Assembly: GCA_900553365.1 (NCBI GenBank)
Contig: USDL01000001.1
Span: 55,967-119,966, forward strand
Source of the DNA: an uncultured Clostridium sp.
GTDB lineage: Bacteria; Bacillota; Clostridia; TANB77; CAG-508
Length of the DNA stretch: 64,000 nt
Direction of reading: 5' to 3'
A program made the translations under genes and the position numbers. Position 1 is the stretch's first letter. Every line of letters begins with the position of its first letter. Under the pieces are notes generated by a model. The model was not told the DNA's origin. It did not search any database and saw nothing but the letters and a program-made list of their open reading frames with translations. Of the stretch, positions 2,767 to 57,406 are shown in pieces.

Positions 2767-3732
2767 TTATTTTTCAGAAGTCCCACTTGCAATTTTATCG
2801 CATTCGTTAAACAAAAAAAGCTTATCAAGGTTTTCTTTTCCCATAATCTTTTCCCATTTAGATTTAGACTTTTCGGTTTCAAGAAAGAATGGAAGCATAT
2901 GAAAATTAACATAAAACAGACATTTTAAAATATCGTCCATATTAGTAAATCCAATACAATTAAGATTTGCTAAAAGGTCATACGTTCCTACATTATGATG
3001 ACTATAATATCTATAATCTCCAGAACCATCTTCCTTGGGCTGTCCAGTAGTTAACTTGCCTAAGTCATGAATTTGTGCAGCTCTATAAAGAATCTTATCA
3101 TCAGTTCTTTTAGCAACTTCTTCGGCACAAATTCTACAATGTTCATCTAAAGTGTACTTATGATGACAAGTTTTCTGGTCAAAGCCCTTCATCAAACTCA
3201 TAATATAATCATCATCAGTAGTCCAATTAGACTGAGGGACAATTACTTCAAACTGATTAAAATTCCAACCAATTAAATTAATTGTATCAAAACCTTCTTC
3301 ATAAAAAGGAATTTCAAACTTGCCAATCTGTCTGTCAATAACTTCTTCGGGAACTGTACGAGTTCTCGCTTTATTCTGTCTTTTACAAACAGCAACGGGA
3401 GTAGTCATAACATAAGCTACTTTAGTAACATTCTCCTTATTGCGAACAATATCCAACAAGCTCTTACGAGATTTAACATTAATATTAGTTGCATCAACAA
3501 TAACATTCATTTTATCAATGCAATTGTTAATACGGCGACGAACTTCCTTAAAAACCTCGTCATTATGAGTCTGGTCGTTTACATCTCCAAAAACAGTTTC
3601 ACGAATTTCATCCGATGAAACAATCATTGTAGGCTGACCCATTTTAGTCAACATATTTTTGAGATTTTGAGCAAGAGTGGATTTACCACTTGCAACAACT
3701 CCAATCATCATCATAAAATTCGTATGTTCCAT
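2767..3732 (-). CDS. Polynucleotide 5'-kinase fused to a C-terminal HD-domain phosphohydrolase (RNA end-healing enzyme)
   Basis: The 321 aa ORF has a P-loop GVVASGKST, a kinase-type SSDEIRE, and then H..HD-type motifs (CHHKYTLDEH, IHDLGK, SHHNVG). RBS AAGGAGGA precedes the ATG. No TAG codons. Confidence 0.75.
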   Translation of the reverse strand: MEHTNFMMMIGVVASGKSTLAQNLKNMLTKMGQPTMIVSSDEIRETVFGDVNDQTHNDEVFKEVRRRINNCIDKMNVIVDATNINVKSRKSLLDIVRNKENVTKVAYVMTTPVAVCKRQNKARTRTVPEEVIDRQIGKFEIPFYEEGFDTINLIGWNFNQFEVIVPQSNWTTDDDYIMSLMKGFDQKTCHHKYTLDEHCRICAEEVAKRTDDKILYRAAQIHDLGKLTTGQPKEDGSGDYRYYSHHNVGTYDLLANLNCIGFTNMDDILKCLFYVNFHMLPFFLETEKSKSKWEKIMGKENLDKLFLFNECDKIASGTSEK

Positions 3733-4256: not shown

Positions 4257-6719
4257 TTATTCCTCTTGTACTTCATCTTTTTCTTTCCAATCTTTTAGTT
4301 GCCTAATTAAAGTTCTACGCTCTTCATCTTCTTTTCTATGAAGCACATTATACTATTCTCTAAGCTATCTGTATTCCTACTTCAAAAATTCAGGTAGGAA
4401 TGTTCTTTTTGTTGAAACAAAATTTGTATCAATAGAACGTCGTAAGGCTTTAGTTTGAGCTACAAGTACACACAATTTCTTAGCTCTGGTTAATAAAGTG
4501 TAAATCTGTTGCTGACAAAGCATCATTGGAGGAGTACTATAATCTATTACTCCAATAATTACAGGGCAACCAGAACCTTGATATTTATGAGTAGTACAAG
4601 CATATCCTAGAATTAAATGTTCCTTAACTTCTTTGTGTTTTAAAATAATAGGTGCATCTCCTAAATCGAAATCAACGATGGCATTTTCATAATCAATACT
4701 TGTAACTACACCAGTCCACCCATTATACATAGCTGTTTGTGCTCCACTTGTATCAAAAACTTTATAATTGTTTTTAATACACATTACTTTATCACCTTCT
4801 TGAATCCAAAAAGACCTGTCATTTCCAGAAGCATCTTTCATCTTTTGAACGTAAATTCTTGGACGAGATTCATTCAAATCAACAGGATTAATTAATTTTT
4901 GAATATCAAGATTTAAATTGTGAACACAAGCATCTCCACGTTCTTTCACAGGAGAAATAATTTGAATTTTTTCAATGTCACCATTTACAAGAGGGCTATT
5001 AAAATATTTTTCAAAATAAGCAATGGTATCTTTTCTATCATCATCTTTTTCATTTCTAATATCAAGTACCATATCTTTCAGTTCTCCGCGAATTTCAACA
5101 CCTTCATAATCAGTATCTTGATATAATTGAATACCATTTCTTACATTATAAGCGGTAGTTAAAATACCAGAAGCCTTTGCTTGTCTATGTACTTCTTTAA
5201 GTTCAACAGTAGGAATTTCTTTGCTATTAATCATATCCGCAGCTAAATTAAGAGAACCAATAGATTCAAGCTGTCCCATATCACCAAGCATTAAAAGTTT
5301 ACTGCCTGTGGGAATTGCTCTAATTAAATCGAGAAAAATTTCTCCACCCACCATACTAACTTCATCTAAAATAATGATATCATAAGGTAATGGATTATCT
5401 TCTCCATAAGAAAAACCACAACCACCAGTATATCCAAGAAGTCGGTGAATAGTAAAACCTTCTTTGCCGGTAACTTCTTGTAATCTTGCCGCCGCTTTAC
5501 CACTTAAAGCACATTGAGCAAAAGTATAGTCATCAAGTACAGATAAAATACCTGTAACTAACGAACTTTTACCAGAACCAGCTAAACCAGAAATTACGCA
5601 AACTTGTTTTTCAATTCCCAGCTTAATTCCGTCTATTTGCTCTTGAGTAAACTGAAAACCTTGTTTCTCTTCTGCTCTTTTTATTTTCTCTTCAAAATCA
5701 TTAGCAACAAAATAATTATTACCTTGAAGTAATCTTTTAAGATGATAAGCAATATCTTTTTCAAGATTCCAAAAGCTCATTAAATAAACTCTTCGACCTG
5801 ATTTAGTATCGCCCTCTTCAACACGAATTAACTCCTCATCTTGAAGTTCTTTAATAGCTTTACCAACATTGTTTACAAGATTACCATCTTCATCTTCTAC
5901 TATTAAACTTTGTTTTCCGCCAAGGTCTTCATATAACGAGCCCATTAATTCACCAGCGGACACCCAAGAATGGCCTTCTTCTCCTTGGGCATCAAGATAC
6001 CATAAGATATAAGATTTAATTCTCTTTGTGTCATAAGTTTTATAACCTGACCTTAAAGCCACTTTATCCGCAGTAAAAAATCCTACTCCTTTAATATCTT
6101 TTACTAACTGATAAGGATTGTTTTTTACAATATCAATTACCTTTTGTGGAGCTTTATATTTTTCAATTAGTTTAGAAATAAAGTTTGGAGAAAAACCAAC
6201 CTTATCAAGCTCTAAATATACAGTAGACATATCTTTACTGGCTTCGAAACGCTCAATAATACAATTAGAAATATAATCTCCAATACCTTTAGCTTTCTTT
6301 AAAGTTTCTATATCATGGTCTGCAATAGCTTGTAATGGGTCATCGCATACAGCAAACAACTCATCCATTTGACCTTCTGATAAAAAAGTTCTTAAAAAAG
6401 CTCTTTGATTCTTCTGATTAGAAAAATCAATATCTTTATTATAATAAACTAATTGATACTGAACACCATATTTAGGATGTTCAACTTCTTTACCTAACAA
6501 TACATAGGCAGAATTGGGGTCAATTCCATCAGTATATTCCCCTGTAAAAGTAACTTCACCATAAACACTCATGATAGGATTTCCTTGTTCTACTTCAAGA
6601 ATATTCCAAGAAACTATTCCCCAATTTTTACCGTCTGACCCAATTCCAGCACTCGGATAGAGGGTCTTGGAATGAGACGCTTTTATCTTTATGAATTTTT
6701 CTTCGGTATCAACACTCAT
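4257..6719 (-). CDS. RecD-like SF1 DNA helicase (AAA_30/UvrD_C type)
   Basis: Walker A GLAGSGKSS, Walker B IIILDEVSM, and the motifs CTTHKYQGSG and YTLLTRAKK. The ORF-track end at 4377 is a TAG. Reading continues through three TAG codons (4377, 4365, 4353) to TAA at 4257-4259. ATG 6717-6719 overlaps the TGA of the DnaE gene. Confidence 0.8.
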
Positions 6720-18845: not shown

Positions 18846-18880
18846 TATTTTTGTACTCCTTTAATTTTGTCTTTTAATTT

Positions 18881-19066
18881 TTAATTTTCATTTTCATCAT
18901 TGTTGTCATTGTCATCATCGTCAATAGACTTGTAATCATTACAAGCCTCAAACGTCAAAGTAACTCCCAAATCTCTTCGAGCGTCCTCAAGAAAAGGCTT
19001 AAGCTTTGCATACGCCGAGCACTTTACCAAAAAACGACAATCTTCACACGCAAGATTATTAACCAT
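18881..19066 (-). CDS. Small Cys-containing protein with a poly-acidic tail (61 aa)
   Basis: Intact ATG ORF and the first gene after the promoter at 19119-19147. C-terminus DDDDNDNNDENEN. Confidence 0.5.
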   Translation of the reverse strand: MVNNLACEDCRFLVKCSAYAKLKPFLEDARRDLGVTLTFEACNDYKSIDDDDNDNNDENEN

Positions 19067-19118
19067 TTTACTATCTCCTAATTATTCAAAAAAATCAACC
19101 TACCTTGGTTGTGAATAA

Positions 19119-19147
19119 AATATAGCATAGTTTTTTCATCTTGTCAA
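19119..19147 (-). promoter_or_regulatory. Sigma70-type promoter (TTGACA-17-TATATT) at the late/replication module boundary
   Basis: On the minus strand, TTGACA (19147-19142), a 17 nt spacer, then TATATT (19124-19119). The -35 element is embedded in the palindrome CAAGTACTTG. Confidence 0.65.
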
Positions 19148-19165
19148 GTACTTGGCAAAAATTTT

Positions 19166-43069: not shown

Positions 43070-43100
43070 CTTTCACCTCTTTTAGCCTTTTTGGAATGGG

Positions 43101-43141
43101 AAAAAAAGAGATAGCCCAACCTTACTCAGTTAAGCTATCTC
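43101..43141 (-). terminator. Rho-independent terminator
   Basis: In the minus-strand RNA, the stem GAGATAGC...GCTATCTC is followed by UUUUUUU, and can be extended by AUGGGAAA/UUUCCCAU. Confidence 0.7.
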
Positions 43142-43215
43142 CTTTCCCATGAACGTTGATTATCCAGTTCAATCATTCAAAACTTTTTTAAACCACAAAC
43201 TTTAAGTAAGGGCAA

Positions 43216-43440
43216 TCAATTCCAACCGTCATAGTAGTCATTATCTTCATAATGCTTCTTTTTCTTTTTACGGTTTTCATACCTATTTCTGTTTCGAGTC
43301 TTTTCGTAATCCTCTTCGAATTCAAAAATCTCTTCTTCTTTTTTTTTCTTCACTATCTATTTTTTCTTAACCGGCTTTCTCTCTTCAGATTCATCATCTC
43401 TGTACTAATCAAAAGCCTAATTTTTATTTTTCTTACCCAT
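43216..43440 (-). CDS. Small highly basic/acidic Lys-rich protein (74 aa)
   Basis: ATG 43438-43440. Three in-frame TAG codons. Stop TGA at 43216-43218. Not in the ORF track because of the TAG codons. Confidence 0.45.
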
Positions 43441-43460
43441 AAATTCTCTCTTATTTTTAG

Positions 43461-44782: not shown

Positions 44783-45439
44783 TTAATTAAGAATTTGTGA
44801 AATATCATCAACAATATGGTCAACCAAAGAATACTGCAACTGTTGAGCATCATCCAAATACCAATCAGTCTTAAGCTTCTTAGTTAAGGTAGACTTGGAA
44901 ATAGTAGTGTTTTCTATAATATTATTATGAACCCTAGAAATCAAATTTTTATATTGCTGGTTCTGCTGTTGAACGGCGTTAAAATCACCCCGTTGCATAG
45001 CACTTCCAGAATGCAGAAGTGCCGTAGAGTTCTTTAAACAATATCTATGACCTTTATGACCATTAATAAGAATCATAGCACCGCAACTCATAGCACAAGC
45101 AAGATTAACGGTGACGATAGGCGTCTTCGAAAGCTTCATAACAGACAAAAACCCCATCGCTGAATACAAATCCCCACCATAAGAATGGACGTAAATAAAA
45201 ATCTTCTTGCGGTCTTCAATAGGAATATCTTTATCAGCATCCTCTTTGTTCCAGCGAATAATTTGCTGCATTTCTTGAAACAAAGTTTCGTCGATATCCT
45301 TGGTTATCCAAAGTTCCCTATTTTTAAGTGACCTATATTTCTAAACTAAAATAGGGTCTGGAAGTTGTAAATTAGCTTCTGGACCAAGTTCCTCTAAACA
45401 AAACAAATCATCTAAAGTATCATTCTTAATTTTATCCAT
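44783..45439 (-). CDS. ClpP-like serine protease (S14 family)
   Basis: ORF 44783-45283 extends through TAG (45351-45353) to ATG 45437-45439. ClpP-like blocks are IYVHSYGGDLYSAMG, ACAMSCGAMIL and ALLHSGS. Confidence 0.65.
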
Positions 45440-45479
45440 TTTAATACCTTTTAATCCTTTTATTTTATTAAAAAATATA

Positions 45480-45547
45480 TTTAAAAGAACAGTAATTGTT
45501 AAACAAACAAGATTTTAACAAAAGGTTAATTACTCCCTGTCCTGTTC
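45480..45547 (-). terminator. Compound hairpin with a U-rich tail downstream of the non-coding island
   Basis: In the minus-strand RNA, GAACA..GTAATT..GTTAAA pairs with TTTAAC-AATTAC-TGTTC and is followed by UUUUAAAUAUAUUUUUU. There is a bulge in the 5' arm. Confidence 0.45.
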
Positions 45548-45958
45548 TTCTTTATTGCATAAAACGCTAAAGCTAAACTCTAACGTCTTAAGGAACTCCT
45601 TGTACACATGGTACATGAGATATGTGGCTCAAACCCGCTTTACGAACCCGTAAGTTTGGTCTTCTTTAAGTCCTCATCCTGTGCTCATGGACACCACATT
45701 AAAAAGCTGCAAGACTATGCCTTGTAGCTGGCCTAAATATACAACATGGTATATAAGGTGATAAGGTTTATGCCGACACCTTAAAACGCCTTTCTCTTCC
45801 GTTTGAAACCACGCATGAAAGTATGTTGGTCGGACAGTTTTAATTGCTACCCTGTGGAAACCTGACAACCCTAATAAGCCTCCATTGCATCACTGGATGG
45901 TAGCCCAATATACAACTTCTCTGGCAACCATGACCTCTTGTGCCAATAGGTTTATTTA
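45548..45958. ncRNA. Unassigned structured non-coding island (~410 nt)
   Basis: Visibly more GC-rich than its surroundings. There is no credible ORF in any frame, even with TAG read as sense. It has many local hairpins (GCTACAAG-gcatagt-CTTGCAGC, TTACG-ggtt-CGTAA, TGTAC-catgt-GTACA, GCTACC...GGTAGC), a duplicated GTTGTATATT..GGC motif, and hairpins bracketing it on both sides. Confidence 0.4.
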
Positions 45959-45979
45959 AAAAGCTTAGTAAAGCTTTTT
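45958..45979 (-). terminator. Weak AT-rich hairpin after the RNase gene
   Basis: AAAAAGCTT-agta-AAGCTTTTT lies 15 nt after the TAA at 45994. The stem has low GC, so this is tentative. Confidence 0.35.
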
Positions 45980-45993
45980 ATACAATTATTTAA

Positions 45994-47442
45994 TTACAAT
46001 AAAATTTCTGTTGATTTGTTGGCTACAACAACTTTATCTGTCCTATTTCTTTTACTAATAAGCTCCGACAAAGTTTTACTTAGCTCAACTCTGTCTTTCA
46101 TGTTACCATGCTGAAGGACAACTTTACCATAACCGCTAGTTCCAAACCCACCACTATAATAATCGCAAAGCTCATCTCTTTGCATGTGACTTGAAAAACT
46201 ATTTAAGTTAATTACTCTACAACGACTCAGAGTTTGTTTTCCATTAATGGCAATGGTCTTAGTCTTCTTTTGTTTAATTTTCCAAGCCAAAGACCCTTCA
46301 ACAGAATACCCAATAAATGCAATTCCATTCTTAGCACTTGGAAGGAGCTTTTCAGCAATACCTACAGCAAAACCAGCGTTAAGCATTCCTGCACTAGAAA
46401 TAAAAATTGCTGGGTCAGGCTTTACTAAAATCTGCTCAATCTCTTCATAATTATTGATAAATTTAACCTTATCCCATGAAGAAGCTTCAATCCATCTCTT
46501 AAGTTGCTCACCCTCTAAAATTTCATTAAAAATTTTATTAATTTTACAAGTTAAAGGAGACCCAACATAAACAGGAATATTAAAATTCTCATCATCTTTA
46601 AACATTTCGTAAAGAATAGTTAAAATTACTTGACTCCTCATTAAAGAGAAAGAAGGGAAAAGCAACTTTCCTTTTCCATCAATGCAAACATCATACACAA
46701 AAGCTTTAATCTTTTCTAAATCTTTTTCTCTATCTTTTGCTTTAGCACTTTTTTCTTTGCTGGCATAAGTAGATTCACCCACTAACAAATTTGCGTTTTG
46801 AATAGGTTCAAACTTATTTGCATAATAAGTTTCAGTTCTAATATTACCTAAATCACCAGTAAACGCTATTTTACGAGTAACGCTACCATTTTTGATATAT
46901 AGAATCAATTGAGCAGCGCCGATAATATGTCCAGAAGGAATAAACTCAAATGTTACCTCATCGTCTAATTTAATTCTTTGCTTAAAAGGATACTCTTCAA
47001 TATGAGTAAGCATATCTTTTACATCAGACTCTTCATAAATTGGGGAATATTCCCTTTTAAGTTTTCGAGATAAATCTTCAACATCTCTTAACATAATCTT
47101 AGCACTATCTAATTGCAATTCTCGAATTAAATTTTTATTGCCATCAGGCACAATAATTTTTCCATCAAATCCTCTTTTGGTTAAAAGGCTTAAACGACCT
47201 GAATGGTCAACGTGCGAATGAGTCACAAATACATAATCTACATTCTTCTCTTTAAATGTAAATCTTGCACTATTAGCCTGATATTCTTTCAAAAGACTTT
47301 GATTACCTTGTACCAATCCACAATCGACAAGAATTGTTCGTTCTGGCTTTCCCCATGTAATAACTGTACAAGAACCTGTTACATCTTCTGCTGCGCCAGA
47401 ATTTTTAAAACTTACTCTAATCTTGTCTTTGCTTTTACTCAT
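45994..47442 (-). CDS. Metallo-beta-lactamase / beta-CASP family ribonuclease (RNase J / CPSF-like)
   Basis: The 482 aa intact ORF has the HxHxDH motif (THSHVDHSG) and later conserved H/D positions (IPSGHIIG, FTGDLG, SSHMQRDEL). RBS AGGGGG. No TAG codons. Confidence 0.7.
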   Translation of the reverse strand: MSKSKDKIRVSFKNSGAAEDVTGSCTVITWGKPERTILVDCGLVQGNQSLLKEYQANSARFTFKEKNVDYVFVTHSHVDHSGRLSLLTKRGFDGKIIVPDGNKNLIRELQLDSAKIMLRDVEDLSRKLKREYSPIYEESDVKDMLTHIEEYPFKQRIKLDDEVTFEFIPSGHIIGAAQLILYIKNGSVTRKIAFTGDLGNIRTETYYANKFEPIQNANLLVGESTYASKEKSAKAKDREKDLEKIKAFVYDVCIDGKGKLLFPSFSLMRSQVILTILYEMFKDDENFNIPVYVGSPLTCKINKIFNEILEGEQLKRWIEASSWDKVKFINNYEEIEQILVKPDPAIFISSAGMLNAGFAVGIAEKLLPSAKNGIAFIGYSVEGSLAWKIKQKKTKTIAINGKQTLSRCRVINLNSFSSHMQRDELCDYYSGGFGTSGYGKVVLQHGNMKDRVELSKTLSELISKRNRTDKVVVANKSTEILL

Positions 47443-47561
47443 ACTTTACCCCCTACGTTATTATAGGAACTTATATTATATTTCTATAATACAAATAATA
47501 CAATTTTTTTAATTGTAGATTTTTGCCTTGATGTATTTATAACATTATTATTTGTATACAT

Positions 47562-47590
47562 ATAATAACAAATATTAATGTTTCTGTCAA
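47562..47590 (-). promoter_or_regulatory. Sigma70-type promoter (TTGACA-17-TATTAT) for the RNase gene
   Basis: On the minus strand, TTGACA (47590-47585), a 17 nt spacer, then TATTAT (47567-47562). Confidence 0.6.
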
Positions 47591-47719
47591 GGACTTTGAG
47601 AAAAATCTTTGTCAAATAAAATCTTCATCAAAAAGATGCTTTTCAAAATCCTTGATTTTACTGGGAAAAATGCGCCTGTTTTACCAAATAAAATTCACTT
47701 TTTATTCTCTTTCGCGTCT

Positions 47720-47748
47720 AAAAAGAGGATGGGATTAACCCCATCCTC
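47720..47748 (-). terminator. Rho-independent terminator
   Basis: In the minus-strand RNA, GAGGATGGG-guuaau-CCCATCCTC is followed by UUUUU, 14 nt after the TAA at 47762. Confidence 0.8.
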
Positions 47749-47761
47749 AGTTTATTTGTCA

Positions 47762-52079: not shown

Positions 52080-53302
52080 TAATAAAAACCTCCCAATTTA
52101 AAACTAAAAGTCTCACTAATAGTAACCCCTGCAACATCAGGGTCGATACAAGTGGCAATTACATCTAATGTACCTCTATTGCAAGCTTTTAAATTTTTAA
52201 TCTTAAAGGTGTTATCACCAGTTTGTTCAAATTCATAATATTTGGACCAATTTTCTTCTTTTATACCATTTAAAACAACTTTGTACTCGAAGTGAGTGGA
52301 AAGTGTACCACCTTTGAAACTTAATTCAGTTTCACATTCTTTGCTATTGCCAAGAATTATTTTATAATCATCACAATCTTTAAGAGTAATATGATACTCC
52401 TCATCGTGAAGGTCTTCCTTTTTTGGAATAAGATATAAAGGAGCATTATTAGCGACACGTGTTACAGCATCGTCATTAGCACCCCATAAATCTTTATCCA
52501 ACGCCAAGACCACGAAAGGTATATCTTCTAATCCAGTAAAACCACTTTTTGCAAAAGTTTTGGTGGATGTACTCTTTATAACAGCTTTAACTTTATATAT
52601 AGCATTATTTTCAATGTCGTTCTAATCTGTACCACCAAGAATAACTCGGCTATTAATTTTAACAGCATTTGAAAAATAATTTAATTGCATTGTGACATAC
52701 CACTCAGCTTGAGGTATTACCAAAGTTTTATTATAATACTGGTTCATATATTTCAATTCGTTTTCCAGTACAATAGGCTCATACCTTATTTCAGTGGCAT
52801 CTGTTTGACTGTTTGTTGAAGACCCAAGTAATGCAATATTAGCATTACATCTACGAATTACGCAAGAATTCCGTGGATTTATAGGAGAATTATTTATAGC
52901 AATCCAAACACTCGTATTATAATGTTTTTCTTCTTCTGTCATAACGCTTAAATCCTGAAATTCCAAAGAAAAGCGATATCTTTTTCCAAGAGGATTGGGA
53001 TATTTTAAATCTCTAAAAGAAATTTCTGCCCAATCTGTACCCAAATCTTCACCACGTTCACCCTTAACATTTCTTATAACAACAGTCTCAAGAGGTGTAT
53101 ATTCAGGCATTTTGGTTGTGTATTCAATTTGTCGGTCTTTTTCTTCTTCTATGTCAACAGTATTATATCTATACTCCCAATCCTAATTGCGTTTATGTTG
53201 CAGATTTTGAATGTAATAATTATCTCCAACCATGTTATGCTTTAAACGAGCTTTGAGCATGATACTGCTATCAACAATATCGGTAGTATTTAAAATCGCC
53301 AT
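52079..53302 (-). CDS. Hypothetical structural-module protein (407 aa)
   Basis: ORFs 52622-53110 and 52079-52513 plus an upstream extension join through two TAG codons. ATG at 53300-53302. Confidence 0.5.
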
Positions 53303-55953: not shown

Positions 55954-57406
55954 GTGGTCAGTTATATTAAGAGTTATTTAGTGTTTTTAGCTTTTTGCTA
56001 TTCATAATCTTTTAAAATTATTTCAGCATAATAATTATTATCTTTTAATAGCCAATTTATCTTGTCAATTATTTCTTGTTTTTCTGGAATAGAATGGTCT
56101 CCTTTTATTCTTAAGACTTTGTAACCCATTTTTTGAACTACTCTATCTCTTTTTATATCTTTCTACTGGTCTTGATGCCAATACCAACCATCATATTCCA
56201 AATCTATTTTAATATCTCCAATAAAAATAGCTACATCTAAATTGAGTTGACTTAAAGGGTAGTTCAACTCTACTTTATATTCATCTAAAAGCATTTCATA
56301 AATTTTTAATTGTTGTGAAGAACATGGAATTAATTCTTTTTTATTAGCTAATGCTTCTTGCATTCTTTTTCGCACTTCTGGATTTTGTACGGGATAATCA
56401 CAACCGTATTTTTCCCTGCAAGTGTTGATAGCTTTAGCCCTTACTTCTTTATTCGAAAAAGGATTTACATCTCCATATTTTTCTAAACAAGTTTTAACAG
56501 CTTTTTCTTTTGCTTCTTTTGTTAAAATTGGATATTCAACTCCATATTTTTTCAAACAAGTCTGTTTTGCTTTTTCTTGACCTTCCTTAATCTACCGAGA
56601 ATTATCCACCCCATATTTTTCATTTAAAGTCTTTTTAGATTTATCCTTAATTTCTTTACTTTTAGCAGGATTATCTACTCCATATTTTTCTAAATTTGTT
56701 TTTATAGACTTATTATTTCTTTGAGCTATTAGCTCTTTATTCTTTCCCCAACAATCTCTACAACAATATTTACCATCATGCTTTTCTATTCTTTTTAAAT
56801 ATTTTTTGTATTGAACCGTTATTTCTTTTCCACAAAAATCACAAACAGCCACAACTTCTCTATGGCTTCCTTCTGGTAATTCTTCTGGTTTAACATGAAT
56901 AGTCTTCCCTTTAAAAAGACTATAACCTTTTTCATTGAAATATTTCTAAGCGGTTTGTGTCCAAGGAATTTCAATCAATTGATTTTCTTTTAACATACAA
57001 ACCTCCTTTTTATTTTATTTAAACACTAAATTTTTCGAATCGTCAATTCGCTCTAACCCTTTCGGATTCTTGTATTTTCACACAAGCTTAGACTATATCT
57101 TCATCCCTATAGGATGTCCACCATTTCGGAATAATTTATTGACTATATTCCTACTCCTCTTACGAGGATAGTCGTTGAACCTTCTTCTTTTCGAAGCTTG
57201 GCTGCTGATTACCAATTTTTAAGATACTTAGGGTTTAACCTTATATCATACAATCAATTTTTTCTGCTTTCGCAACTATCACGATTAAATCTATTTCAAT
57301 TTTGCGTTGTAGTTTGATTGTCTTTACGGTATTCCAGCAATTAAATGGAAATATTTTTACGCATATTACTATACGCCCTAGCTATTTATAACGTGCTTAT
57401 ATTTAA
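55954..57406 (-). mobile_element. Group I intron (IA-like) in the major capsid gene, carrying a homing endonuclease ORF
   Basis: On the minus strand the conserved core reads GGTTCAACGACTATCC (R element, 57181-57166) and GAAGATATAGTC (S element, 57102-57091). GNRA/GAAA-capped hairpins include TCCTC-GTAA-GAGGA and AATCC-GAAA-GGGTT. The capsid codon style stops abruptly after ...GTTGACTGG. Exact splice sites are not resolved (roughly +/-20 nt). Confidence 0.8.
55974..56996 (-). CDS. Intron-encoded homing endonuclease (repeated KYG-x-xNP modules plus a C-terminal Vsr/PD-(D/E)xK-like nuclease)
   Basis: ATG 56994-56996 follows AAAGGAGG. Four tandem ..EKYGVDNP.. type repeats are followed by DLEYDGWYWH..KD.KRD...GYKVLRI. 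Four in-frame TAG codons. Stop is TAA at 55974-55976. Confidence 0.7.

Follow-up and report, generated by a model that had tools for sequence, protein, structure and literature searches.

A phage non-coding island with a drum RNA, a candidate phage-restricted RNA and an apparent orphan copy of the RlfAB-linked small RNA

We analysed a 64,000-nt stretch of DNA (the window) from contig USDL01000001.1 of an uncultured Clostridium sp. (GenBank assembly GCA_900553365.1, positions 55,967 to 119,966 of the forward strand), focusing on the non-coding island at window positions 45548-45958, which lies between a gene for an RNase J-like protein and a gene for a ClpP-like protease. Comparative evidence indicates that the island is a cluster of small, separately folding non-coding RNA (ncRNA) modules and not one RNA of about 410 nt, with at least four separable modules and two internal terminators. 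Module A is a drum RNA, B and C are further predicted structured elements, and D corresponds to a small RNA (sRNA) that accompanies the genes rlfA and rlfB in bacteria and temperate phages. The genes surrounding the island are all on the minus strand, and the features of the locus are as follows, with arrows pointing 5' to 3':

45994-47442, minus strand: upstream flank, metallo-beta-lactamase/beta-CASP (RNase J/CPSF-type) protein of 482 amino acids (Pfam).
45958-45979, minus strand: hairpin AAAAAGCUU-(4 nt)-AAGCUUUUU, A/U-flanked, directly past the RNase J-like stop codon (sequence and minimum free energy (MFE) fold).
45933-45951, minus strand: P0 hairpin ACCU-(11 nt)-AGGU, within a conserved 5' flank, AACCUAUUGRCACAAGAGG, upstream of drum.
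45926→45830, minus strand: module A, drum RNA, Rfam RF02958 (covariance model).
45836→45758, minus strand: module B, structured RNA of ~75 nt (covariation and model R2).
45756→45736, minus strand: hairpin UAUAUAC-CAUGUU-GUAUAUU, with a CCAUGUU loop in common with D (sequence).
45729→45701 (stem to 45705), minus strand: internal intrinsic terminator, AGCUACAAGG-(loop)-CUUGCAGCU then UUUU (in part from a terminator scan).
45699→45622, minus strand: module C, ~78 nt, with closing helix AUGUGG/CCACAU, helix GUCC/GGAC and a UUACG/CGUAA hairpin.
45621→45592, minus strand: module D core, AUCUCAUGUACCAUGUGUACAAGGAGUUCC (model R1).
45586→45561, minus strand: terminator of D, a 9-base-pair hairpin ACGUUAGAG-UUUAG-CUUUAGCGU then a U run (sequence and consensus fold).
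45548→45483 (stem to 45487), minus strand: long compound hairpin AGAACAGGACAGGGAGUAAUU...AAUUACUGUUCU then UUUU, the last terminator-type element ahead of the ribosome-binding site of the ClpP-like gene (MFE fold).
44783-45439, minus strand: downstream flank, ClpP-like protease of 218 amino acids with one in-frame TAG (Pfam).

The modular reading comes from related or matching DNA loci compared with the window, which carry L-numbers as labels. Five contigs, the nearest relatives, match the window over the whole island at 95.6-97.3% identity; three relatives that are further removed (RNase J-like protein identity 81, 78 and 71%) have only parts of the island in common with it, and further relatives were collected by pattern scans. 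The elements occur in these arrangements:

Window and close kin, in minus-strand order: P0, drum, B, hairpin and intrinsic terminator, C, D with its own terminator, final long terminator hairpin.
L011 and L014: drum, B, D.
L009: B, D.
L007 and L008: B, terminator.
L281 and L286: B, C, no D.
L209, an unrelated 146-kb phage: D, three tRNAs, B, drum, two tRNAs.
L282-L285: large tRNA arrays in which B begins 4-6 nt past the CCA end of tRNA-Phe.

Since relatives delete, swap or reorder parts of the island, and since the window holds two internal terminators, we rule out a single long RNA. Each module is, as judged from these arrangements, a separable cassette shuffled independently of the others. 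GIY-YIG endonuclease genes (L007 ~5690-6300; downstream of the island in L011) and an HNH/NUMOD gene (L036 7164-7817) adjoin the RNA islands of relatives, a GIY-YIG gene separating the island from the next gene in L007 and L011, and such homing-endonuclease neighbours may account for the shuffling. An initial annotation, made from the window's letters, had suggested a novel phage structured RNA at this place. The island is indeed structured and non-coding, but it is neither a single RNA nor wholly novel, as one module belongs to the Rfam drum family.

With TAG read as sense, the largest minus-strand gap in the open reading frame map runs from 45515 to 45993 (479 nt), and 45548-45958 has a G+C fraction of 0.416, compared with 0.331 on average in the window (standard deviation 0.039 in 411-nt windows), which puts it at the 96th percentile. 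A G+C-enriched non-coding island between genes that Pfam assigns as RNase J-like and ClpP-like, as originally described, is thus borne out. Its description as the only long stretch lacking a coding frame was overstated: it is the longest, but four more minus-strand gaps of 305-388 nt exist under the same reading of TAG (43073-43460, 57015-57385, 47446-47761 and 18861-19165), and Rfam has no match within them. Ten close relatives provide 60 variable sites in the island; its longest stop-free frame (71 codons) has 10, 11 and 5 changes at codon positions 1, 2 and 3, respectively, and none of the stop-free frames is enriched in third-position changes. Because this bias is absent and an indel mosaic disrupts the longest frame, we rule out a protein-coding island, in agreement with the initial annotation, which had seen no credible frame.

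The folding energy of the whole region is modestly better than that of shuffles, and near-equally so on the two strands (z = -2.2 and -2.1), so we called the strand from the Rfam drum match, the G-U wobbles and three terminator-type hairpins. These signals indicate that the island RNAs are read from the minus strand, in the same direction as the neighbouring genes. A plus-strand RNA is ruled out because the Rfam match, the terminators and the substitutions that preserve G-U pairs fit the minus strand only.

Module A is the sole match in the window at Rfam gathering level. It aligns to the full length of the drum model (positions 1-112) with 43.6 bits, narrowly clearing the cut-off of 43 (E 7.3e-5 over 64 kb), and carries the GGAG and GGGUUGU blocks of the family; the drum variants of L014 and L036 score 45.6 and 54.2 bits. 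The Rfam scan that had been advised for the island therefore recovered one known structured family and left the remaining modules without a match: a permissive scan (E <= 10) of 45300-46100 returned nothing credible besides drum, and neither GOLLD nor ROOL. ARAGORN finds 0 tRNA or transfer-messenger RNA (tmRNA) genes in the 64-kb window, in keeping with the earlier failure to recognise a tRNA or tmRNA by eye.

We compared changes at the structure pairs of an alignment of 14 sequences (A2) with 500 shuffles and with slid controls. The drawn structure is paired in 98.8% of cells, and nine pairs are changed on both sides, against 2.2±1.0 in the shuffles (0/500 reach nine) and 0-2 in the slid controls. 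Six of the nine lie in drum, distributed over helix P1 (one), helix P2 (four) and the pseudoknot between the P2 loop and the 3' region (one). Helix P2 reads GUUGUAU.../...AUGCAAU in the window and GCCAUAU.../...AUGGU in L014, and the pseudoknot GCUACC/GGUAGC becomes GCUAUC/GAUAGC in L014.

Module A agrees with the drum family in its helices P1 and P2, its blocks and pseudoknot, its phage location and the presence of a terminator at some distance. According to Weinberg et al. 2017 (PMC5737381), drum RNAs have Rho-independent terminators 3', are not riboswitches or self-cleaving ribozymes, and lie near protein genes seemingly related to DUF3800 genes. The window differs in that no terminator stands directly 3' of drum: B follows, and the first terminator (45729→45701) comes ~100 nt on. 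It also differs in having no tRNAs nearby, whereas the five other phage drum RNAs, on unrelated contigs, are all in tRNA arrays; in L183, L229 and L230 a 92-nt tRNA starts 4-5 nt after drum. A loose drum pattern scan of viral contigs had given mostly chance matches, whose DNA was reused as a background of ~0.9 Mb, and the five true drum loci were recovered by Rfam. The array of L229 contains a ROOL RNA (276.7 bits) together with its drum (L229 3208-3800 and 7122-7249).

Module B occurs in every relative of the clade, with or without drum, and directly follows the RNase J-like gene throughout the clade. Its DNA identity is about 85-91% where the flanking RNase J-like protein is 71-81% identical, so that B is more conserved than its neighbour. 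The conserved blocks are CAACAUACUUUCAUG, AAGAGA and GGCGUUU, with an invariant loop (GU)CGGCAUAA. Helix Bs1 is 100% paired in 16 distinct sequences, with CUUUC/GAAAG replaced by CUGUC/GACAG, and helix Bs3 exists in five complementary versions (AAGGU/ACCUU, AAGAU/AUCUU, AGGAU/AUCCU, ACGAU/AUCGU and, by hand alignment, UCGGU/ACCGA in L209). Double-change cells number 12 in B, as opposed to 3.4±1.5 in the shuffles (0/500). Two further helices, CCGAC/GUCGG and AAACG/CGUUU, are not kept in the tRNA-linked variants of B and were dropped from the model.

The covariance model of B (R2) has one match in the window, at 108.7 bits; 916 kb of other viral DNA yielded no match at E <= 0.1, the top score there being 15.5 bits (E 0.49). 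A degenerate pattern covering all known variants of B occurs in none of 185,579 genomes of bacteria and archaea and 23 times in viral contigs, and no Rfam family matches B. Together, the pattern scans and the covariation indicate that B is a new phage-restricted structured RNA. As B sits where a tRNA follows drum elsewhere, we considered a degenerate tRNA and ruled it out: ARAGORN reports nothing, and inspection reveals no T-arm or 7-base-pair acceptor stem.

The smaller elements between and around these modules vary in their support. P0 is a predicted hairpin whose four pairs are all invariant in 11 sequences. The flank in which it lies is conserved even in L014, despite the diverged drum stem there; it occurs once in the window, which rules it out as a recurring phage promoter. 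The 45736-45756 hairpin is absent from L009, L011 and L014, where B leads straight into D. It may be a degenerate D-type element; as a second copy of D it is ruled out, its score with model R1 being not significant (9.6 bits, E 2.6). In the internal terminator (45729→45705), the substitutions found in relatives all keep or restore pairing (A→G giving G-U, C→U restoring A-U, A→G giving U-G and C→U giving G-U), and the 45701-45729 element probably ends a transcript made of drum and B. Module C is confined to the clade of phages with the RNase J-like gene and in L281 and L286 stands directly after B with no D following. The drawn fold of C is paired in 98.3% of cells but has a single compensatory change (U-A→A-U), no excess over shuffles (101/500), and we regard the modelled fold as plausible and statistically unsupported. 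The conservation and covariation that had been anticipated among relatives thus hold for drum and B, where compensatory changes exceed shuffles, and not for C.

Hairpins had been noted on both sides of the island, and both are present: the one at 45958-45979 after the RNase J-like gene, and the one at 45548→45487 with its U run before the ClpP-like gene. The former is kept in close relatives, with changes in its loop and stem top. Its sequence is terminator-like and could work bidirectionally; with fewer than three G-C pairs, it was passed over by the terminator scan. The 5' arm of the latter, ACAGGGAGUAAUUAACCUUUUGU, is 100% identical in L007 amid diverged surroundings and is replaced as a block in L012 and L017.

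The short helices listed in the initial annotation are real, and each can be assigned to a minus-strand element. GCTACC/GGTAGC forms the drum pseudoknot, GCTACAAG/CTTGCAGC is the helix of the internal terminator at 45729→45705, followed by its U run, TTACG/CGTAA the hairpin of C, and TGTAC/GTACA the hairpin of D. CAACAT/ATGTTG would link B, at its 5' end, to the loop of the hairpin that follows, a pairing that is not general, as B retains CAACAU in phages that lack that hairpin. The duplication of GTTGTATATT is exact, one copy lying in the 5' arm of drum P2 and the other in the 3' arm of the 45756→45736 hairpin, but it is probably incidental, since it is not kept in L014.

Module D connects the island to other genomes. 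A blastn search against phage genomes gave one match, to Bacillus phage SPbeta (93% identity over 45 nt), in an unannotated 1.7-kb gap between yonK and yonN; the core common to both is CUCAUGUACCAUG(A)UGUACAAGGAGUUCC. SPbeta-like prophages have two tandem D-type copies (D' and D), and the SPbeta gap also contains an Rfam DUF3800-VIII RNA. Much further G+C-rich sequence lies in this gap (SPbeta/SPBc2, L001 2600-4280), which is likely a large ncRNA island of this model prophage. Model R1, built solely from 21 bacterial copies of the sRNA described below, has a single match in the window (40.6 bits, E 5.5e-9; next best in 64 kb 10.6 bits), and one match in 913 kb of other viral DNA, the copy of D beside drum in L209. 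Past the D core, SPbeta-like prophages, L009, L036 and all bacterial copies have a hairpin with a U run at the same position, although the hairpin sequence differs. In L014, D reads CAUCUGCCAUGUGUAGAAGGAG, with one stem pair swapped from G-C to C-G and another now G-U. A compensatory difference also separates the bacterial stem, which has C-G, from the window D, which has G-C; pattern scans found this G-C variant 0 times in bacterial genomes and 27 times in viral contigs. The flank of the window D, GGAGUUCCU(U/G)AAGACG, recurs in Lachnospiraceae copies.

The bacterial sRNA is ~65 nt long and has its own sigma-70-type promoter, a 5' end at the A of AGCUCAU, a 5-base-pair hairpin, AAGGAGU and a GC-rich terminator. 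Two scans of bacterial genomes, relaxed and then stricter, gave at least 126 distinct copies in total, in more than 15 phyla among the matches listed. Hosts in the relaxed scan include Proteobacteria, Planctomycetes, Lachnospiraceae, Nitrospirae, candidate phyla and Gardnerella; those added by the stricter scan include Chloroflexi, Cyanobacteria, Chlamydiae, Bacteroidetes, Acidobacteria and Atribacterota. Rfam, including the DUF3800 motifs held there, has no match to the bacterial sRNA or to the window D even at E <= 10, and the sRNA appears to be previously undescribed, with no Rfam family and none found in the literature searched.

Downstream of the sRNA and convergent to it lie RlfB (~140-180 amino acids), for which we found no match in Pfam, NCBIfam or Protein Data Bank sequences, and then RlfA, a DUF3800 protein (PF12686, E 5.6e-14). 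The pair corresponds to the PADLOC candidate defence system PDC-M04 (E 9e-91 for A and 2e-42 to 8e-64 for B), and bacterial RlfA is a homologue of phage P1 RlfA (45% identity), whose small partner is P1 rlfB. Among the matches listed, 89 bacterial loci have at least 1.5 kb downstream, with both RlfA and RlfB in 61, RlfB only in 8 and neither by profiles in 20; the convergent orientation of RlfB holds for 87 of 91 loci, with 15-70 nt between the sRNA core and the RlfB stop codon. The variable stem pair of these listed matches is A-U in 61, G-U in 60, G-C in 4 and A-C in 1, a distribution that fits the hairpin on this strand and is not significant covariation alone. Two loci have the rlfAB cassette inserted within a type I restriction-modification operon. 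Orphan copies with no RlfA or RlfB within 7 kb occur in L071 (~300-450) and in L112 (Lachnospiraceae), each with a second small hairpin RNA, closed by a terminator, ahead of it; L112 also has a serine-recombinase-like gene upstream of the sRNA, and both copies may sit in mobile elements.

A reciprocal test started from the RlfA protein profile against viral contigs and was independent of the DNA pattern. Among the best 80 of 216 viral RlfA loci, RlfB is present in 79 and a match to R1 stands at one fixed convergent position in 63. The contigs of these 80 loci are 5-56 kb long, and many come from metagenome 3300045988, which is also the source of the window's relatives; none is one of the ~215-kb contigs of the window's clade. 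AGCUCAU, the stem and AAGGAG are constant in the protein-anchored loci and the hairpin loop varies, so the CCAUG loop of the first sets was partly imposed by the pattern. The same variability weakens two loop-based ideas, namely that D resembles the CsrA binding consensus or mimics the anticodon loop of initiator tRNA. AAGGAG does not vary among the inspected copies and is kept in most matches, with AAAGAG instead in phage P1 and L009.

Phage P1 (NC_005856) itself has an unannotated ~65-nt sRNA, UACUCAUCUACCAUGUGUAGAAAGAGCGAUC followed by a hairpin and UUUUU, convergent just after rlfB and before pmgF. It lies on the minus strand of L288 at 3655-3720 (~52,912-52,977 of the record), scores 27.7 bits with R1 and has the upstream hexamers TTGAAA and TAGATT. 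The core of the window D matches the sRNA of these cassettes, that of P1 included. The window differs from P1 rlfA-rlfB and PDC-M04 in having the RNA only, the G-C stem variant seen in viral contigs only, and a D that is embedded behind C and is not a primary transcript: its core directly follows C, and we found no promoter-like site upstream of 45621. RlfA and RlfB profiles match nothing in the 64-kb window (E <= 10), nor in about 40 phage loci, those with D among them, whereas the positive control, phage P1, gave 1e-100 for RlfA and 5e-50 for RlfB; tblastn likewise detected no RlfA-type gene in the complete SPbeta genome. We interpret the window D as an orphan copy of the RlfAB-linked sRNA.

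This family also invites comparison with the DUF3800 RNA motifs (DUF3800-I to -XI, PMC5737381). Like several of these motifs, as reported there, the D family is tied to a DUF3800 gene (rlfA) and has a Rho-independent terminator, and SPbeta has D-type modules beside its DUF3800-VIII RNA; the window D differs in having no Rfam match and no DUF3800 gene nearby. DUF3800 proteins are reported to have an RNase H-like fold and to be found in retron (type VII) and Cas12a2/Cas12a3 defence contexts (PMC7736814, PMC10910872). Literature searches returned nothing on the function of PDC-M04 or rlfA/rlfB, and nothing useful on yonK/yonN.

We tentatively favour, by analogy, the interpretation that the island RNAs act in trans as mimics of host defence-system RNAs, as decoys or antitoxin mimics. 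The simplest role for an unvarying sRNA so firmly tied to a nuclease pair of this kind is that of a regulatory partner of RlfAB, and in the cassette the sRNA would probably restrain or program the nuclease module. The large, lytic-type phage would then possess D without the RlfAB proteins, fused behind other RNA domains. During infection, phage-made D RNA would keep a host or prophage RlfAB-type system inactive, and drum, perhaps with B and C, would serve as analogous counter-measures against related or sister systems, which would explain the gathering of such RNAs in phage tRNA/ncRNA islands. We consider a decoy or antitoxin mimic the most plausible role because this phage has the RNA without the proteins while small temperate phages of the same ecosystem have the whole cassette.

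A precedent for the logic comes from type III toxin-antitoxin systems. Blower and colleagues reportedly described in 2012 a phage that escapes ToxIN by pseudo-ToxI RNA mimicry. In that system the toxin processes ToxI, which is a tandem repeat. The interpretation proposed here follows the same logic, in that a regulatory RNA of the host system, copied by the phage, would keep a nuclease inhibited, and the likeness would be one of mechanism only. The RlfAB sRNA differs from ToxI in being single-copy, with its own promoter and convergent to rlfB, and no ToxI-type repeats are seen here; RlfAB as a toxin and the sRNA as its inhibitor would be an analogy only.

Several points weigh against mimicry. 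The drum score is barely above the gathering cut-off, the link between drum and DUF3800-type genes comes from PMC5737381, and the fold of C is without statistical support. The transcripts of the island, their ends and their processing are all inferred. PDC-M04 is a candidate defence system only and the role of RlfAB is putative; moreover, a C1-controlled operator is annotated upstream of phage P1 rlfA, which suggests a function in the lytic phase and not classical prophage defence. The phage D lacks a promoter, and its conserved 5' end would lie within a longer RNA, so that D may behave unlike the bacterial sRNA. B has no bacterial counterpart, so the decoy logic is not obviously extendable to it. 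Finally, direct examination covered 64 kb (30%) of a ~215-kb genome.

An alternative that we consider unlikely, though worth taking seriously, is that the modules serve phage translation or RNA metabolism as accessories of tRNA arrays outside defence, for example by binding ribosomes, tRNA-processing enzymes or other host RNA-binding proteins. D contains the Shine-Dalgarno-like AAGGAG, near-constant even in the protein-anchored loci, and the window version has an AUG in its loop. In other phages drum lies 4-5 nt before the 92-nt tRNA and B 4-6 nt after the CCA of tRNA-Phe, and with tRNAs abutting so closely (4-6 nt) RNase P or RNase Z would generate the ends of drum and B. B is confined to phages, and ROOL occurs in the same kind of array. 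The resemblance to the GOLLD and ROOL RNAs of phage tRNA arrays, and to phage tRNAs that counter anticodon nucleases, is that drum, B and D lie between tRNA genes in other large phages, one array including ROOL; the modules of the window are, however, far smaller, and the window lacks tRNAs. Besides the absence of tRNA genes here, a role in translation leaves unexplained the tight tie of a 30-nt core to rlfB-rlfA in bacteria and temperate phages. Phage tRNA arrays have themselves been discussed as counter-defence loci (bioRxiv 10.64898/2026.01.16.699850).

The RNAs could also be substrates, guides or partners of the adjacent beta-CASP RNase, which might trim a composite transcript to free the 5' end of D or be regulated by the RNAs. 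B directly follows this gene in every clade member, over a protein identity range of 71-99%, and the phage D would have to be trimmed on its 5' side before it resembled the bacterial sRNA, which starts at the A of AGCUCAU. We judge this improbable, as drum, B and D in tRNA-array phages, and the D-type copies in SPbeta, have no such neighbouring gene, and adjacency within one clade may reflect inherited gene order.

Decidedly improbable, in our view, is a system of the phage's own, of the RlfAB/DUF3800 type, with the proteins encoded elsewhere in the ~215-kb genome and directed against competing phages or at host takeover. Phage P1 and many ~30-kb phage contigs do possess the complete cassette, and the examined 30% of the genome leaves room for such genes. 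In all complete cassettes seen, however, the sRNA is within ~70 nt of rlfB, and RlfA and RlfB are missing from the window and from the flanks of about 30 D-bearing phage loci. No contig of the clade is among the best 80 of 216 viral RlfA loci, and SPbeta has no RlfA-type gene.

We give little credence to a cis-regulatory island, acting as an attenuator-type leader of the ClpP operon, as the initial annotation had proposed, or as a stabilising 3' untranslated region of the RNase J-like mRNA. The island does lie between both genes on their strand, and conditional read-through of its several terminator-type hairpins is conceivable. Against this, the modules travel without either gene, B, drum and D being found in tRNA arrays with no ClpP gene nearby; an endonuclease gene stands between the island and ClpP in L007 and L011; three terminator-type hairpins precede ClpP; D is a free-standing sRNA gene in bacteria; and no conserved alternative antiterminator pairing was found. 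Scarcely credible is mostly non-functional debris of RNA genes, shuffled by homing-endonuclease recombination and passively carried. The mosaic architecture, the GIY-YIG and HNH genes adjoining the island in relatives and the lack of statistical support for C and for the hairpin at 45736-45756 would fit such debris. Conservation speaks against it: B has changed less than the protein gene beside it, the helices of drum and B are maintained by compensatory changes, and the D core is 93% identical to SPbeta.

Mimicry of host defence RNAs thus remains the interpretation we prefer, and it can be extended, speculatively and with more doubt, to the whole set of RNAs: the sRNA may be the universal RNA component of the RlfA/RlfB module, with drum and the eleven DUF3800 motifs partnering sister systems, and large lytic phages may assemble orphan copies in composite transcripts as a multi-target anti-defence array. 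Such an array would be the RNA counterpart of anti-defence protein islands and would account for the clustering of 'sophisticated' RNAs with tRNAs in phages. In 2017, drum and the RNAs associated with DUF3800 were flagged as 'sophisticated', with no function assigned (PMC5737381). The locus joins drum to a widespread sRNA absent from Rfam and to an RNase H-like two-protein module, a PADLOC candidate that phage P1 has carried as rlfA/rlfB for decades. If the decoy interpretation is true, RNA mimicry would be a general strategy in phage counter-defence, with a role for part of the phage tRNA/ncRNA islands; if it is false, there remain the RlfAB sRNA and B, two RNA families that merit curation, along with the unannotated sRNA of P1. 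The question is tractable in phage P1 with E. coli and in SPbeta with B. subtilis.

The flanking genes are assigned by Pfam. The upstream protein (45994-47442) matches Beta-Casp (E 9.5e-19) and Lactamase_B (E 6.7e-13), and the downstream protein (44783-45439) matches CLP_protease PF00574 (E 2.4e-26) with its single TAG, at codon 33, read as sense. This TAG is consistent with TAG recoding by the phage; yet the window has 0 tRNA genes and so no suppressor tRNA. A protein search places relatives of the RNase J-like protein on viral contigs of ~215 kb. As its closest database phages are uncultured human-faecal phages, followed at a greater distance by Clostridium phage c-st, the host is likely a member of the Clostridia.

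Further RNA elements were noticed in relatives. L009 (308-476 and 1968-2052) and L011 (2208-2373 and 3875-3959) each contain domains of group II introns (RF02004 and RF00029), a few kb upstream of their RNase J-like genes; the window has no such match. L009, L013, L014, L281 and L286 carry extra conserved non-coding blocks 3' of B or D that are absent from the window (e.g. AACAAACUUUAGAUAGUGGAAGUUAGAAGAGCG...GGCAUUGAUUUAUAAGCU; L009 5640-5830) and may be further RNA modules. In two arrays that also carry B, ARAGORN calls a tRNA with a four-base anticodon (aaga; L283 1049-1123 and L284 6510-6584), which may be of the frameshift-suppressor type. In L036 (3494-3800), a perfect TTGACA-17-TATAAT promoter follows a Metallophos gene and is itself followed by ~270 nt of non-coding sequence that ends in D and its terminator, which would be a composite RNA with another 5' domain.

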